DNA of 30,444 nt from Planctomycetota bacterium (lineage in GTDB: Bacteria; Planctomycetota; MHYJ01; JACQXL01), in contig JASEHY010000001.1 in the NCBI GenBank assembly GCA_030018555.1, positions 1 through 30,444 of the forward strand, in the 5' to 3' direction. The notes beneath the pieces are model-generated. The model had not been told where the DNA came from. It made no database searches and saw only the letters and a program-made list of their open reading frames with translations. Positions within the stretch are counted from its first letter, which is position 1; every line of letters starts with the position of its first letter. Positions 11,962 through 24,054 of this stretch are shown piece after piece. The position numbers and the translations under genes are program-made.

Positions 11962-12279
11962 CTATGGAATATCTGTTAATTGACTACAACGCCAAGTAGT
12001 AGAACTATCACTATTTTCACAATGATAAACATTCCCACCTGTTTGTAATTGTAATTGGTCTCCTTTCTTACCAGAACGACTGCCATCAGGATTAGTTTCT
12101 ACTACTTCTAATCTATGAAAGTTCGTGTATAATTCCTGAAGATATAATTGTTCAGCTATCGGCTCACCCGATAGTGGAGGCGGCGCAGAAATTTTGTCGG
12201 CATAAAGCGAAAAGCAGGTCGCTAAAATAATACCAAAAAATAGTCCCTTAAAAAATCTAAACACGGTCTCCCTGTTCAA
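11962..12279 (-). CDS. Small tail-associated protein with signal peptide
   Basis: Lies between the nozzle and fibre genes; hydrophobic LFFGIILATCFSLYA leader. Confidence 0.6.
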   Translation of the reverse strand: MNRETVFRFFKGLFFGIILATCFSLYADKISAPPPLSGEPIAEQLYLQELYTNFHRLEVVETNPDGSRSGKKGDQLQLQTGGNVYHCENSDSSTTWRCSQLTDIP

Positions 12280-13822
12280 GGTAAATCTCCCACCCTTTAA
12301 CTTCTACAGGTTCATCAAGGTTAGAATTTGAAAACTTTATTTGGTAGAAGTCTCCCTCTTTATTAACCTCTACCCTTCCGATAATAAGATTTTGCCCCCC
12401 ATACGCATCTACTCCAAAAACCGCAGTTCCCCACAAAGAACCGCTCCCCGCCAATGATATGCTTTCGGTAGTTCCTGTAGTCTCAAAATCTTTACGCATC
12501 TCGGCAACAAGATTATAATTGCCTTTCTGGTTAGCGAAAACCTTGAGCAATTTCCAGTCCTTTTGTGGTGATAATTCGGGGAAATAAAACTGTTTAGTTG
12601 TATAAATTGTCTCTATCGCTGTCCCTGCGTCATTAGTTCCCGAAGGATACTTATAAACAAATCCTCCGTAATCCCCGAAAACAAGCATATCCTTGCCTGT
12701 GCCATCATCGGCAACGGCGATAACGTTAGCGTTTATTCCCACGAATTTCGTCCAAGCAAGGTGAAAGGTATCAAAAGATAAGATACGATTATGAGTTTCA
12801 TTGCTTGATGTAGAAAAGGCAAGATAATAATCTTTGTCAAAGAGTTCTCCTACAACGTATTGAAAACGGTTAAAGTTCGCTCCATCAATAGTTCCTTGTA
12901 TCTTTGTAGAGATAAGTTTTATACCGATAGCTCCGTCATAAATATAAATATCGCCTTGTGATGAAACAAAAAAGAAATCATTTCCTATCCTTGAAATACT
13001 TTTCGGAGATAATGTTCCTACATTAGAAATCATCCTCTGGAGTTGAAAAGTATCTTTATCATCTCCTGATAATCTCCAGATAGAATAATCTTTCCAGATG
13101 TAGAGGGCGTCAAACCCTGGAACAATAGCCCTGATAACAGAACCATCGTTCGTTTCAATACTAACATTTCCACTTAATCCTGTAGTCCAATTTTCTATGT
13201 TCCCGACATCGGTAAAATAAAGCGTGGAAGGATTTGTATTATTCCCTGCGGCAAAACCCATCCGCTTATGATACGCAACCAATGTAGCGTTAGGCGGAGA
13301 ACCCGAAAGTGCGACAGCATTGCCTGAACCTGTCCATTTATAAGGCGCAGTAGTATTAAGCCCATCCTCAATAATAAGCGTATCTTCGCCAATAGCAAAC
13401 GAAGAAAGATTGTTACCTGTAATTGCAAAAGAAAGACTGCCTGTAATATCGTCCCAAGTTCCGTCTGGACCGCCGCCCACCTGATAATCCATCTTGCGGA
13501 TTTTGTCATCGTCAAATACTCCTATAAGATATTTTGTTCCAGAGGTAGGTTTGTAATACTTTATTCCTGTGCAGATGACCGAAGCCCCAAGCGTCGTAGA
13601 GTTCAACTTTGCCGAACCACCTCTTGTTTTCCAATTACCAGAAGTAGTAAAAACTACATTCTGCAAATCGCTGGCTTCGTTATCCTCTATAGCTATAGGG
13701 CTAAAAGCATCATTCATCCCGCCATTGTTATTAAAAAATGATGCCTTTACCCATTTAACTTCCGCAAAGGCATTACAGGTAATCAAGAAGAAAGAAAGTA
13801 ATAATGAAAGTATTTTCTTCAT
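12257..13822 (-). CDS. Tail nozzle/stabilisation protein (P22 gp10/T7 gp12-like beta-propeller) with signal peptide
   Basis: After signal MKKILSLLLSFFLITCNAFA comes the nozzle-type N-terminus (GGMND...IEDNEASDLQNV...GNWKTRGG), propeller blades (LYFTDVGNIENW, LYIWKDYSIWRL, VGTLSPKSISRIGNDFFF) and a C-terminal closing domain. Confidence 0.8.
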   Translation of the reverse strand: MKKILSLLLSFFLITCNAFAEVKWVKASFFNNNGGMNDAFSPIAIEDNEASDLQNVVFTTSGNWKTRGGSAKLNSTTLGASVICTGIKYYKPTSGTKYLIGVFDDDKIRKMDYQVGGGPDGTWDDITGSLSFAITGNNLSSFAIGEDTLIIEDGLNTTAPYKWTGSGNAVALSGSPPNATLVAYHKRMGFAAGNNTNPSTLYFTDVGNIENWTTGLSGNVSIETNDGSVIRAIVPGFDALYIWKDYSIWRLSGDDKDTFQLQRMISNVGTLSPKSISRIGNDFFFVSSQGDIYIYDGAIGIKLISTKIQGTIDGANFNRFQYVVGELFDKDYYLAFSTSSNETHNRILSFDTFHLAWTKFVGINANVIAVADDGTGKDMLVFGDYGGFVYKYPSGTNDAGTAIETIYTTKQFYFPELSPQKDWKLLKVFANQKGNYNLVAEMRKDFETTGTTESISLAGSGSLWGTAVFGVDAYGGQNLIIGRVEVNKEGDFYQIKFSNSNLDEPVEVKGWEIYLEQGDRV

Positions 13823-17198: not shown

Positions 17199-17223
17199 GG
17201 GAGGGGACGATTAGTCCCCTCCC
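17199..17223. terminator. Intrinsic terminator-like hairpin after the capsid and decoration genes
   Basis: Perfect 10-bp stem GGGAGGGGAC/GTCCCCTCCC with a 5-nt loop. The tail is TTGTTTTGTT on plus and GATTTAAT on minus. Confidence 0.65.
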
Positions 17224-17231
17224 TTGTTTTG

Positions 17232-17741
17232 TTAATCAGCACCAGTGGGGTCAACCCAAATAAATAAATAATCATCATCTGAACCTGAACCCGCTTCAAG
17301 CGCAATTCCCAAATTAGTGCCACCACCGATTGAACCAATCGTTCCGCTTGCAGTAGTTCCTACAGCAGTTCCGCTTGATACTGCATCAGAAGAATCAGCC
17401 GCTAACGCATCAATCGGCCCTTTCGTAACAACTACTACCGGAGTTTGGTTATCTGCGGCATACTTAACGCAACCGACAACTAATATGCTGTCAGCTGTAG
17501 CTAAATCTTCCACATACGCGCCAAGTGTAGTTCCCGCGGTTACTCCCGTTCCGTTTAAATCAAGAACAACAGCTTCACCGTGGGTAAGCCTATTACCGCC
17601 ATTATTAAAAAAAACAGCGGTTTCCTGCAACTGTCTATAATTAGAACCATCGCCACTTGCAGAACCCCAGGCAAAACACACTCCGTTAAACGCCAATACT
17701 TCGGCGAATAACAGAGCGATGAGCATACATAATTTTTTCAT
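17232..17741 (-). CDS. Capsid decoration/cement-like protein with signal peptide
   Basis: Follows the MCP gene. True start is the ATG at 17741 after GGAGG. Signal MKKLCMLIALLFAEVLAFNGVCFA, then a G/A/T-rich beta-clip-like body (VVGCV...VVVVTKG...GIALEA). Confidence 0.65.
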   Translation of the reverse strand: MKKLCMLIALLFAEVLAFNGVCFAWGSASGDGSNYRQLQETAVFFNNGGNRLTHGEAVVLDLNGTGVTAGTTLGAYVEDLATADSILVVGCVKYAADNQTPVVVVTKGPIDALAADSSDAVSSGTAVGTTASGTIGSIGGGTNLGIALEAGSGSDDDYLFIWVDPTGAD

Positions 17742-17755
17742 CTTATCCTCCATTA

Positions 17756-18729
17756 TTAGCTCCAAGTATCTGCGTTTAATAATGTGCCATTACGACCAAG
17801 GTTGGTCATAACGGCATTCCCCGCCCAGAGGACATAAGTTGCCAAATCGTCCTTAGTTTGGGATTTCACAAAATCACCTATCTCGGCATCTCTTCCTTCG
17901 CGCACAAATAAGCGGAAATACTTTTTTGCGTTCAGGAAATATCCGAAATTGGCAGGACAGGCATCATCAGCGAAAATCAACGCGCCTTTGTATGAAATAT
18001 TACCAAAGCCAGCATCAATCATTGCCTGGTCGCCTGCGCCTACGCCCATCAACGGAAGATTAACCTGAAAGGTTGAAGTCAACGCCCTTTCAAAGTTATC
18101 CATTGCCGCGCCTGTGAGGACAATAGTATCAATTGTCTCGTCATACCTTGTGGCTTGGCGAAACAATGTCCTCATAATGTTCAGGCCGTTGGTGGTAAAT
18201 GCGCTTGCAACATTACCCGACTGATGTCTCCACTTGGTTAATGTCGCCCTGCTTAAATTACCTACTGTTCCAGTTGTCGTGGAAGTGGTAAGCATATTCT
18301 GTAATCCTGTAATCGCCCGCAGATTAGTCTCATCAGCGGAAGAAAAAATACCCTCCGATGAACCACCGATACTTTCCCGCATTGCGATTTCCGCAGATTG
18401 CAGAAATAACTCCACGAGGTCAATCTCATTGCCTTCAGGGGTCTTAATCATATCAAGACCGCTGACCTGCACGGGGACCGCGATTTGCTTCCACTCATAT
18501 ATACAGCTTGTTGCTGGATCGCCCCTTACAGGCGTCAATGGGTCAAGGTCAGTATAACCCTGCGCCGTCGGAAGCTCCTTTAAGATGTTAAATCTTAAGT
18601 GAGGTTTTCCTCCAGTACGGATTATAGAACCAAGAGCCTTCAAGCGGTATAAGAGCGAAGTGCGGGTTGAGGCGTTATCAAATAACACCCCTTCCGCTTC
18701 GTCTGCCACGATTGAGAATATTCTTTGAT
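17756..18729 (-). CDS. Major capsid protein (HK97 fold), exon 2
   Basis: LFDN...LLYRLK, YEWKQIAVPVQVSG, GLQN, YKGALIFADDACP..GYFLN, LWAGNAVMTN are recognisable capsid motifs. The track start (GTG at 18709) has no RBS; the frame stays open upstream to the predicted 3' splice site. Confidence 0.88.
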
Positions 18730-19544: not shown

Positions 19545-19575
19545 ATTCCCTCGTAACGCTCAAATTTCCTGCCAT
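19545..19575 (-). CDS. Major capsid protein, exon 1 (31 nt)
   Basis: RBS AAGGAG, then ATG at 19575 (MAGNLSVTRE + T). It joins exon 2 to give MAGNLSVTREYQRIFSIVADEAEGVLFDN. Confidence 0.85.
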
Positions 19576-21660: not shown

Positions 21661-23680
21661 GATTACCCCCTACTCCAGGGGCACTCCTTACCCCTCCAAC
21701 TATGTCGGCGAACTCCGTAACCCCGCCCCGCCTTTGTTCTGGGGCAGTAGTTTGTGGGGCAATCTTGCTGTCGCCTTTCTGTGGTATTACCTGCGGATTT
21801 TTCATCTCATAATACTGTTTGGTTTTCATAATATGCTCATCCATCTGCGGAGTAATTTGTAACCCCAGAGATTGGTATGCCTGGCTATGGACCTGTAAAT
21901 GCAATAAACTATTTTCGTTGGGGCCTGGGATACAGGGAATACCCTTTAAAAGCAATTTATTTTCCTCTTGCGCCGTTTGAACTTCCTGTTCGTCATAACC
22001 CACAACCGCTCTGTCAATATCCTTAAAGTCAAACTTCTTAAGCAGCTGTGGAAGGATAATAGAGTCGTTTAATCTGTTGGGGAAGTTCGCTTTAATAATT
22101 CCCATTAAATCCATCCATTGCTTTCTTTCCACAGCTTCATCTTTTGCAGGACGGGTAGAACCTGCCTCTATCCTGAAAAGTAATTCTCTCTGCACAATCC
22201 TACGGGCTTCGTCAACATCTTCAGGCAGGGATGGCCACATTTCCTCTGTAGGCATTTCACCAATAATCTCGGCAACTCTTTCTCTTGGTATAAACTGCCA
22301 AATCATACCCGCTAAACCCTTGGCTATCATCACCGTAAAATCTTCAATAGTATCTACCTTCTCGGACTGACGAAGTAATGCGCCTGCCCTGACATTTTCG
22401 CTTTCGGTAGCGGTCTGTATGCCCTCAGAAGTTCCTAAAAGCTGGTTATACCCGCTTCTACGGATTAAGTCCTGAAGAATAATTTCCCTTAGCCTGTAAA
22501 AATCCTGCGGAAGCGCTGGCGGAGTAAAGCCCTTTACAGCGTTTTCAGTAATATCATCAAGCAGTATAAAGTCAACATCGCTTGCATTTTGTATTTTAGA
22601 GGCATCAGGTTCGCTTACCGCTCCTCTTTTACCCAAAAGCAATGTCCCTGCCCTTTTCCTGTGCCGTAACATTGCCGAGGAAATAAGGGAAATCTCTTTT
22701 AACTGCGGTATCATCGGCACAATATCCGAAAGCGGGAAGGCATTAGAATCTTCATCGGAGCGGGGTATCTCATTAAAGATTAAGGGATATATTGGGAATC
22801 CGTCTATAAAATAATCCCAATCTCCGTCATATAGAGAATCTTCGGTAAAGTTTTTGGCGAGGGTAATTCTTTTATGCGTAGTCCTGTCAAAGATATGGTA
22901 AAGGGTGATTTTTACAAGTTCTTCGTCCTGACCTTCATAGTTTCCACCTACACTCGGCAAAGCCTTCATATTGTAGGCACTAACAGGGCTAATCTTCGCT
23001 GAATTGGAAATCCTTAGCCCGCGGAGTCTATTTTTTACGCTCTTAAAAGACGGATTGGCCAAAATCTTATCAAGCGAAATGACTTGCTTCTTAATCAGAT
23101 AGGGACACTCCCTTATATCGTGATACCCGTCGGGAAAAAGCAAATCCCAGGGCGATAAATGACTTAAAAACACATCATCTTCTTTTATCGTTTCATCAAC
23201 TATACCCTGTTCCTCTTCGGTCTTTGTAACATTGCCTACATCTTTTAATTCAGGAAATTCCGCTTCTATTGTTTTTATCGCCTTTGACTTTTCGGTAAAG
23301 AGGAAATACCCTATCTCTATAAATCCTGGAGGCTGTAAGATACCGTCAATGATTGACTGTTTAATCTTCTTCTTGGCTTGCTTTTCATACCAGTAATGGT
23401 TTATTGCTAATTCCATTGTTTCAGCAAATTGGCCAAGGCGGGCGTTTTTTGTCCTGCAAAAGATATGCGGGTTACGGGCATAGATAGCGGAAACTAACAC
23501 CTGCATATATTCATAGACAAAATTAACTTCGCTGATTTCGGTATCACTTCGCACGGGAGAGCCGAAGAATGTTCCTGTGTATAATTTCATTATCTGCTTG
23601 CGCTCGTTGGTCTTGGTCGCCTGCAAATCTTCACAGCGCTGTATCCTGGCAAACCACAGTTTAATATCTTCAGGTTTCAT
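21647..23680 (-). CDS. Portal protein
   Basis: About 677 aa, between terL and scaffold. VNFV...LVSAIYARNP, QTATE...A..RQSEK, FRIEAGST and a Q/P-rich tail match P22-like portals. Likely start at 23680 (ATGA overlap). Confidence 0.88.
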   Translation of the reverse strand: MKPEDIKLWFARIQRCEDLQATKTNERKQIMKLYTGTFFGSPVRSDTEISEVNFVYEYMQVLVSAIYARNPHIFCRTKNARLGQFAETMELAINHYWYEKQAKKKIKQSIIDGILQPPGFIEIGYFLFTEKSKAIKTIEAEFPELKDVGNVTKTEEEQGIVDETIKEDDVFLSHLSPWDLLFPDGYHDIRECPYLIKKQVISLDKILANPSFKSVKNRLRGLRISNSAKISPVSAYNMKALPSVGGNYEGQDEELVKITLYHIFDRTTHKRITLAKNFTEDSLYDGDWDYFIDGFPIYPLIFNEIPRSDEDSNAFPLSDIVPMIPQLKEISLISSAMLRHRKRAGTLLLGKRGAVSEPDASKIQNASDVDFILLDDITENAVKGFTPPALPQDFYRLREIILQDLIRRSGYNQLLGTSEGIQTATESENVRAGALLRQSEKVDTIEDFTVMIAKGLAGMIWQFIPRERVAEIIGEMPTEEMWPSLPEDVDEARRIVQRELLFRIEAGSTRPAKDEAVERKQWMDLMGIIKANFPNRLNDSIILPQLLKKFDFKDIDRAVVGYDEQEVQTAQEENKLLLKGIPCIPGPNENSLLHLQVHSQAYQSLGLQITPQMDEHIMKTKQYYEMKNPQVIPQKGDSKIAPQTTAPEQRRGGVTEFADIVGGVRSAPGVGGNRGGM

Positions 23681-24054
23681 TTTCTTTCCCAATCTTCTAT
23701 GGTAATGTTATAAGGCACGCCGAGCCAATTACCTTCCTTATCTTTAGTAAGCAGGCTTACCGCCCAGATATGAAATACGGGCGGGTGCGCTTTTTGTTCC
23801 CACGCCCAGCTCTCGTATTGGTTCATCGGGCAATTATCTATCGGGCATACAAACGCATCTTCATTTTTAGGTTGCGGCACATCTTCGCTTGCGGGTTTAA
23901 AATCTTCGGCTTTTAATTCATCGCCAACCTTAATCTCGTCTTTCTGGTAATTATATAAATGCCTTTTGCAATGTGGGCAGTAAATAGGGATTTCAGCAAA
24001 TACTAATACAGCAGAAAATAGTAATAAAATAGTAGTTAGAAATAGTTTCTTCAT
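23677..24054 (-). CDS. Exported Cys-containing protein between terL and portal
   Basis: Signal MKKLFLTTILLLFSAVLVFA; CPHC and CPIDNC motifs. Confidence 0.65.
   Translation of the reverse strand: MKKLFLTTILLLFSAVLVFAEIPIYCPHCKRHLYNYQKDEIKVGDELKAEDFKPASEDVPQPKNEDAFVCPIDNCPMNQYESWAWEQKAHPPVFHIWAVSLLTKDKEGNWLGVPYNITIEDWERK

Follow-up and report, generated by a model that had tools for sequence, protein, structure and literature searches.

A cement-type phage protein with a conserved export-type leader, encoded between the capsid gene and a Wzy_C membrane-protein gene

The DNA analysed here, called the window below, is the whole of a 30.4-kb phage contig (30,444 nucleotides; JASEHY010000001.1 of assembly GCA_030018555.1, Planctomycetota bacterium). 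Directly 3' of the gene for an HK97-type major capsid protein, which ends with a TAA codon at 17758-17756, lies a gene for the 169-residue precursor of a cement or decoration-type protein (Table 1), and the same gene adjoins the 3' end of the capsid gene in about 20 relatives. A preliminary description of this DNA had placed an open reading frame with a strong ribosome-binding site after the capsid gene; both are borne out, by a GGAGG sequence in front of the ATG and by the match of the upstream gene to a capsid family. The same description held the gene to be part of a terminator-bounded unit. Of such a unit, the analysis bears on the downstream end, where a GC-rich hairpin starts 8 nt past the cement stop codon with the Wzy_C gene behind it. 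The position of the hairpin is kept in 12 relatives (L001-L009 and L012 among the loci), with stems that differ and have energies of -19 to -40 kcal/mol. The hairpin is probably a terminator, an attenuator or an end-protector stabilising the mRNA, and it probably sets a high expression of capsid and cement proteins relative to a low expression of the Wzy_C membrane protein.

Table 1. Features of the capsid, cement and Wzy_C genes in the window, listed in the direction of reading.
Feature	Coordinates	Strand	Basis and remarks
Major capsid protein, exon 1 (MAGNLSVTRE, 31 nt)	19545..19575	-	Behind AAAGGAG; intact relatives begin MAGNLS...
Major capsid protein, exon 2, HK97-type	17756..18729	-	phrog_9953, E 3.9e-28; frame runs upstream of the GTG at 18709
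Ribosome-binding site GGAGG	17747..17751	-	5-nt spacer to the ATG of the cement gene; read from the sequence
Precursor CDS of cement/decoration-type protein, 169 aa	17232..17741	-	ATG at 17741; stop codon counted in; ORF list and sequence
Signal peptide, residues 1-24	17670..17741	-	MKK, hydrophobic core, V-C-F-A; predicted signal peptidase I cut before W25
Mature cement protein and stop codon	17232..17669	-	N-terminal arm, residues 25-48; beta-barrel cement domain, residues 49-169
GC-rich hairpin between cement and Wzy_C genes	17199..17223	-	10-bp stem with 8 G-C pairs; terminator scan
Wzy_C (WaaL/PglL-type) polytopic membrane protein, 377 aa	16057..17190	-	Pfam Wzy_C, 42.5 bits against a cut-off of 31.7

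The capsid gene is itself interrupted, its two exons being parted by an intron that bears an HNH endonuclease gene, with HNH domains matched in the inserted open reading frame. The true N-terminus of the capsid protein, encoded by the first exon, contains no hydrophobic leader, in agreement with the earlier statement that this protein is leaderless. The capsid gene of one relative (L009, 8142-9950) is broken elsewhere, at an internal position, by a 248-aa open reading frame into parts of 265 and 72 aa, apparently through a second mobile insertion that arose independently in this gene family.

The cement-type precursor begins with MKK, continues with LCMLIALLFAEVLAF and ends its leader with V-C-F-A↓W (the arrow marks the predicted cut), including a hydrophobic stretch of about 15 residues with a hydrophobicity of 3.05 over 10 residues. 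The mature protein is predicted to begin with WGSASG, its N-terminal peptide starting WGSASGDGSNYR. Leaders were called from hand-scored features. The close family comprised 150 homologues at E≤0.01, and the counts cover the 120 that were listed. A leader is present in 120 of 120, and a site of the form [A/V/C]-[F/Y/W]-[G/A]↓W-G in 98; these W-type sites have A, V or C at -3 in 94 cases and G, A or S at -1 in 92. The remaining 22 proteins carry equivalent sites, e.g., V-C-F-A↓G-D-G or A-Y-A↓V-S, and the n-region has a net charge of +2 or +3 in 109 of 119 close homologues. An exhaustive profile search of 1.84 billion representatives returned 104 proteins. Of 103 distant representatives, 95 have the leader, and five of the eight without it are short fragments (63-128 aa). 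Among the best-scoring sites of 92 distant members, 85 have A at -1 and 80 have A or V at -3, with VRA↓E, AFA↓D and ANA↓A as examples.

Sec/signal peptidase I substrates are marked by a basic n-region, a hydrophobic h-region 10-15 residues long, small side chains at -3 and -1, and a +1 position free of proline; the window leader follows this grammar, which is kept over the wide divergence of the family. Lipoprotein, Tat and prepilin leaders were rejected, as no lipobox, RR or G↓F-x-x-x-E motif occurs in the family; Cys is found at -3 in just 16 of the 120 close homologues and at +1 in none. An internal start giving a leaderless form was likewise rejected, there being no conserved Met or start context. 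Pairwise identity in the close family is 41% in the leader, 72% in the segment just after the cut and 58% in the body of the protein; with a drifting leader joined to a constrained mature N-terminus, the leader thus behaves as a generic targeting signal. Judged by these patterns, it is a family-wide canonical Sec/signal peptidase I export signal, far beyond what chance would give. The cleavable-looking 24-aa leader noticed earlier in the window protein is therefore upheld, with canonical -3 and -1 residues in both the close and the distant sets.

The AF2 model of the precursor, computed with 57 homologues, has a mean pLDDT of 85.9 and is low only near the predicted cleavage site, with values below 50 at residues 20-25. 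All top 50 Foldseek matches in the PDB are capsid cement, decoration or head-fibre-base chains, with a probability of about 1.0. The best is Haloferax virus HFTV1 (8qsy, TM 0.70 by target), and further matches include the capsid-stabilising protein of TW1 (5wk1_K), the base of phi29 gp8.5, Borrelia BB1, T1, Sf11, FCWL1, the cyanophage Pam3, and lambda gpD; DUF2190 proteins are among the AFDB-cluster matches of the cement domain. In viral and AlphaFold libraries the same domain serves as the trimeric base of longer fibre-like proteins, of both heads and tails. As the cement fold also serves as a fibre base, it does not by itself locate the protein on the capsid. In sequence comparisons, the window protein matches PF23982 (XM1_gp53) with an E value of 6.6e-4 at 20 bits, below the cut-off of 27 bits, and has no match to PF09956 (Phage_cement_2), which is matched (E≤0.01) by 12 of 61 diverse members of the family. 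Among the proteins retrieved with the family profile is P0191, which is leaderless and passes the Phage_cement_2 cut-off (27.6 bits vs 24). Sequence searches of the PDB with the close-family and wide profiles gave nothing relevant.

Prediction of the mature protein as a homotrimer gave an ipSAE of 0.92 (0.06 for the best control), a score that may partly be a memory of solved cement trimers and shows likeness, not binding; at least 94% of contacts were common to the runs and pLDDT was 89-90. Among solved homo-pairs 20 of 30 attained the ipSAE mark, as did 1 of 23 single chains. Many invariant columns of the family alignment fall in the predicted trimer interface. Decoration protein gp53 of phage XM1, with 160 residues, forms trimers at the threefold and quasi-threefold axes of the capsid (PMC10457771). 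The models support the view that the mature protein has the fold of trimeric capsid cement and decoration proteins, in line with the preliminary description, which had named it a decoration-type protein and proposed an AlphaFold trimer and a Foldseek comparison as checks. Two other family members, P0150 (459 aa) and P0186 (286 aa), have leader-bearing cement domains with long C-terminal extensions that match no Pfam family; they may be exported variants resembling head fibres.

In fold, predicted homotrimer, length (about 145 mature residues), gene location directly after the capsid gene and conserved N-terminal arm, the protein resembles the structural group formed by PF09956, PF23982, TW1 Dec and lambda gpD. 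What sets the present family apart is a Sec leader of cleavable type, the frequency of paired cysteines and a Wzy_C gene that always lies next to the cement gene. To our knowledge, all studied cement proteins are leaderless and cytoplasmic.

Paired cysteines occur at two places in the alignment of 120 sequences. A Cys pair at positions 114 and 138 is found in 45 sequences, a single Cys at one of them in 8 and no Cys at either in 67; in place of Cys, these positions hold size-complementary pairs (A/I, I/A, V/A). At positions 96 and 102, 11 sequences have the pair and 2 a single Cys. On a FastTree phylogeny, positions 114 and 138 change 12 and 13 times, respectively, and their joint state 15 times, suggesting mostly joint changes; a phylogeny-controlled test of cysteine covariation had only two usable pairs and was underpowered. 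The covariation is suggestive of structural disulfides, one or two in many relatives, and these in turn would imply that the protein folds outside the cytoplasm, under oxidising conditions. Both the 114/138 and the 96/102 pair are missing from the window copy.

The gene behind the hairpin encodes a membrane protein of the family that includes WaaL and PglL. A polytopic membrane-protein gene follows every leader-bearing cement copy whose downstream gene is readable, at about 20 loci with a GC content of 34-57%, and was confirmed as Wzy_C in 10 loci, the window included. The pairing holds in three loci (L011, L012, and L096) where the cement protein is only about 30% identical, and in 12 of 13 IMG/VR contigs (34-57% GC), those with a visible downstream gene; all seven neighbours tested among the latter pass the Wzy_C cut-off, with 40-56 bits. 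Wherever enough flanking DNA is available, in relatives as in the window, a fixed order is seen: terminase, a small leader-bearing protein, portal, scaffold, capsid, cement gene, polytopic membrane protein, two coiled-coil proteins, SU10-type adaptor, a leader-bearing protein of about 520 aa and further leader-bearing proteins. A sporadic moron was rejected, the cement/Wzy_C pair being fixed in the operon.

Three leaderless relatives allow a comparison. In L013 a leaderless cement relative is followed directly by an SU10 adaptor and then by a nozzle-like protein that also lacks a leader, a Wzy_C gene being absent, and in L095 no membrane-protein gene follows the leaderless cement copy. In the Myxococcus phage Mx8, p49 (162 aa), an annotated virion structural protein whose gene adjoins the capsid gene, and p52 are both leaderless, again with no Wzy_C gene. 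The cement leader, the Wzy_C gene and the leaders of outer-tail proteins thus appear to occur together or not at all, on a leaderless sample of three. The obligatory Wzy_C pairing, with its absence in leaderless relatives, is the strongest clue and was overlooked in the preliminary description; the new result is the strict coupling of the cement leader both to Wzy_C and to the leaders of tail proteins. Mx8 is also the nearest cultured relative by capsid protein (p48, 28% identity), and the gene order of the window is like that of Mx8, with terminase, portal, scaffold, capsid, a small structural protein, adaptor and the large nozzle-like p52. Unlike in the window phage, p49 and p52 have no leader in Mx8, and no Wzy_C gene lies between capsid and adaptor. 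Profile comparison of the cement family with p49 gave no significant result.

The same division between proteins with and without leaders extends over the window. Terminase, portal, scaffold, capsid, adaptor, the coiled-coil proteins and three large internal-type proteins are leaderless, while leaders are borne by the cement-type, nozzle-like, fibre-like and spike-like proteins, a putative chaperone and a few small proteins. Relatives show the same partition, including IMG/VR contigs with leaders on the nozzle-like protein and on later genes. No leaderless duplicate of the nozzle-like or fibre-like proteins was found in the window, so either exported proteins become virion parts, or the leaders do not export. 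Identification of the nozzle-like protein rests on matches to phrog_3287, phrog_5107 and phrog_578 and on its position after the SU10 adaptor; AF2 did not confirm a nozzle fold (pLDDT 37, with a seven-sequence alignment). At the mature N-terminus of this protein (12257-13822, reverse strand), residues 21-36 (ASFFNNNGG) resemble residues 40-50 of the cement protein (AVFFNNGG), a likeness that was not seen in the distant clade and may be due to chance.

The cement/Wzy_C layout is like that of the pilin and O-oligosaccharyltransferase pairs (pilA-pilO/tfpO, comP-pglL/pglS), where the gene of an abundant exported structural subunit has a Wzy_C-family membrane-enzyme gene directly behind it on the same strand. 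The window differs from the pilin pairs by its phage cement fold, by a signal peptidase I rather than a prepilin leader, and by a Wzy_C protein without the conserved histidine. Among pglL-type genes, 21 of 31 adjoin the gene of the target protein, and residues R215, R288 and H338 are functionally important in the WaaL ligase of E. coli (PMC3643930). Of 14 aligned phage Wzy_C copies, 11 have a W-R-H-x-H-N-E or A-H-N-E motif; H-N-E is kept in all seven copies of the distant clade, in L002 and L008, and, as H-S-E, in L003. The window protein has A-E-S there, and L001 and L009 have lost the motif too, a pattern indicating that the histidine presumed to be catalytic has been lost more than once. 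The Ser plus Thr content of the mature N-terminal arm (23.6% vs 21.6%) shows no clear enrichment. As a hypothesis for the clade, O-glycosylation of the cement protein is reasonable; lacking the conserved histidine, the window phage is a doubtful case. An additional small open reading frame with a hydrophobic N-terminus lies between the cement and Wzy_C genes in two distant relatives, L101 (6604-6867) and L109 (2388-2630), that of L101 having a lipobox-like L-A-G-C.

In mycobacteriophages, phage enzymes glycosylate proteins on the surface of capsid and tail. The glycosyltransferases there are cytoplasmic and their targets leaderless, whereas the candidate here is a periplasmic enzyme of the Wzy_C type that would act on exported proteins.

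The window contig was binned with a genome of 1.66 Mb (estimated as 79% complete) whose RpoB is 73-74% identical to that of Planctomycetota/Candidatus Brocadiia MAGs. The link of the phage to this host is weak: no shared 18-mers that would suggest spacers were found between contig and bin, homologues of window genes elsewhere in the bin are methyltransferases only, and the tetranucleotide correlation of the phage contig (0.91, vs a median of 0.97) is the lowest of 38 large contigs. Searches of 185,579 species genomes, and of 50,697 phage records with four different family members, gave no relatives; the clade thus has no cultured or annotated member in these sets. It is present in IMG/VR and in many metagenome assemblies, one related contig coming from a municipal landfill metagenome. 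The GC spread of 34-57% implies many different hosts, and the architecture of leaders and Wzy_C gene is thus not tied to one unusual cell plan.

In the textbook view, tailed-phage assembly is wholly cytoplasmic and cement proteins are late additions made in the same compartment. The reading preferred here, to which we give a probability of about one half, is that the window protein is a trimeric cement protein of the Phage_cement_2, XM1 gp53 or TW1 Dec kind that is exported by the Sec pathway and decorates heads after the inner membrane has been breached. The precursor would be made in capsid-like amounts from an abundant capsid message closed off by the hairpin, cross the cytoplasmic membrane and be cut by signal peptidase I to give the WGSASG terminus. 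It would then fold and trimerise in the periplasm, acquiring one or two disulfides in many relatives, and there Wzy_C proteins that keep the catalytic histidine may O-glycosylate it. DNA-filled heads would meanwhile be assembled in the cytoplasm from the leaderless terminase, portal, scaffold, capsid and adaptor proteins. With the heads cytoplasmic, contact with the exported cement protein would be possible only when the inner membrane is breached, by holin lesions or at lysis, or by some earlier route. Holin lesions are far larger than a capsid, so no special transport would be needed. After the breach, trimers of the cement protein would bind firmly at the threefold sites of expanded heads. 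Finished capsids are bound in vitro by lambda gpD, phage L Dec and T4 Soc and Hoc.

Several features of the window itself speak against this explanation, namely the Pfam score below the cut-off, A-E-S in place of H-N-E in Wzy_C and the absence of the main cysteine pair. Because capsids are cytoplasmic, the route or moment of their contact with exported cement protein must also be assumed. The nozzle-like and fibre-like proteins face the same dilemma, which raises the odds that the cement protein is found on virions. The preliminary description argued that capsids must meet the exported pool, which is logically sound if the cement protein is on virions, and that the leader thereby discriminates between models of assembly. 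This second step does not follow, as periplasmic entry before lysis and mixing of compartments at lysis are not separated by it; entry of the whole capsid into the periplasm is compatible with the data and not required by them, since mixing at lysis would suffice. A more general proposition is that, in a large, uncultivated SU10/Mx8-like podophage clade infecting many hosts, cement, nozzle, fibre and spike proteins would be exported by Sec, folded oxidatively and, in most members, O-glycosylated by a PglL/WaaL-type enzyme of the phage, the gene of which is tied to the cement gene, and would then join filled, cytoplasm-made heads in the periplasm; in this full form it is tentative and, in our judgement, on balance unlikely to hold.

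A serious though unlikely alternative is that the protein is exported and never becomes part of the virion, the cement-fold trimer being a periplasmic partner or substrate of Wzy_C that acts on the envelope of the infected cell. Remodelling of surface glycans, exclusion of further phages or a periplasmic platform for exported tail parts would be possible roles. The inseparability of the cement/Wzy_C pair across deep divergence agrees with this, as do the leaderless relatives devoid of Wzy_C, the habit of PglL-type genes of adjoining the genes of their targets, the reuse of the cement fold beyond capsid decoration and the difficulty of squaring a periplasmic site with cytoplasmic capsids. Decoration of the capsid is better matched by the canonical position of the gene after the capsid gene, by expression signals of capsid level and by the module, which is fixed in the head-tail operon and is no variable add-on. 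The nozzle-like and fibre-like proteins, which bear leaders and have no leaderless copy, further argue that exported proteins reach virions anyway.

Assembly outside the cytoplasm before lysis appears improbable; filled heads would enter an enlarged periplasm, or dock at it, and receive cement, nozzle and fibres there. The Wzy_C-like protein and the two adjoining coiled-coil proteins might take part in such a process. It would account for the division between leaderless capsid-building and content parts and leader-bearing outer parts, and Planctomycetota, to which the genome binned with the contig is related, have an enlarged periplasm. There is, however, no known mechanism by which a capsid of about 60 nm could cross an intact inner membrane; the host link is weak on all the counts given above, and the occurrence of the same architecture over such a range of GC implies hosts of many kinds. 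Least probable is that the hydrophobic N-terminus does not serve export, being instead a tether to the membrane, an element for assembly or targeting that a phage protease removes, or an inefficient signal, with a cytoplasmic pool decorating the heads: export and cleavage are indeed read from sequence and ordinary cement proteins act in the cytoplasm, but the full signal-peptide grammar persists over wide divergence while the sequence drifts, no leaderless form has a conserved internal start, the paired cysteines point to an oxidising compartment, no motif of another leader class is present, and no prohead protease was recognised in the module.

Virion components carrying export or membrane-insertion signals are known from the coat protein of Inoviridae and from the membrane proteins of PRD1/PM2-type phages, which assemble at or beyond the inner membrane. 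The present phages resemble these in having export-type signals on putative virion components. Unlike the window phage, Inoviridae and PRD1/PM2-type phages are not tailed HK97-fold viruses and do not package DNA into cytoplasmic proheads. What is new, as read from the sequences, is a conserved exported-type cement protein across a wide clade, coupled to a Wzy_C gene and to leaders on tail proteins. If the signals work, these phages would have a different assembly topology, with completion of the virion in the periplasm or at lysis. Their virion surfaces would be stabilised by disulfides and possibly coated with glycans, with the exposed parts kept from cytoplasmic sensors, and the protein would offer a natural display scaffold that folds in the periplasm. 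Should the protein not be on virions, the family would still clearly exemplify the recruitment of a capsid-binding fold to a function in the envelope.

Among the small leader-bearing proteins, one with a C-P-x-C motif is encoded between terminase and portal in the window (23677-24054, reverse strand) and in four relatives (L002, 849-1193; L003, 1001-1375; L005, 4320-4694; L009, 3724-4068). It may be an exported protein of zinc-ribbon-like or thiol-active type.
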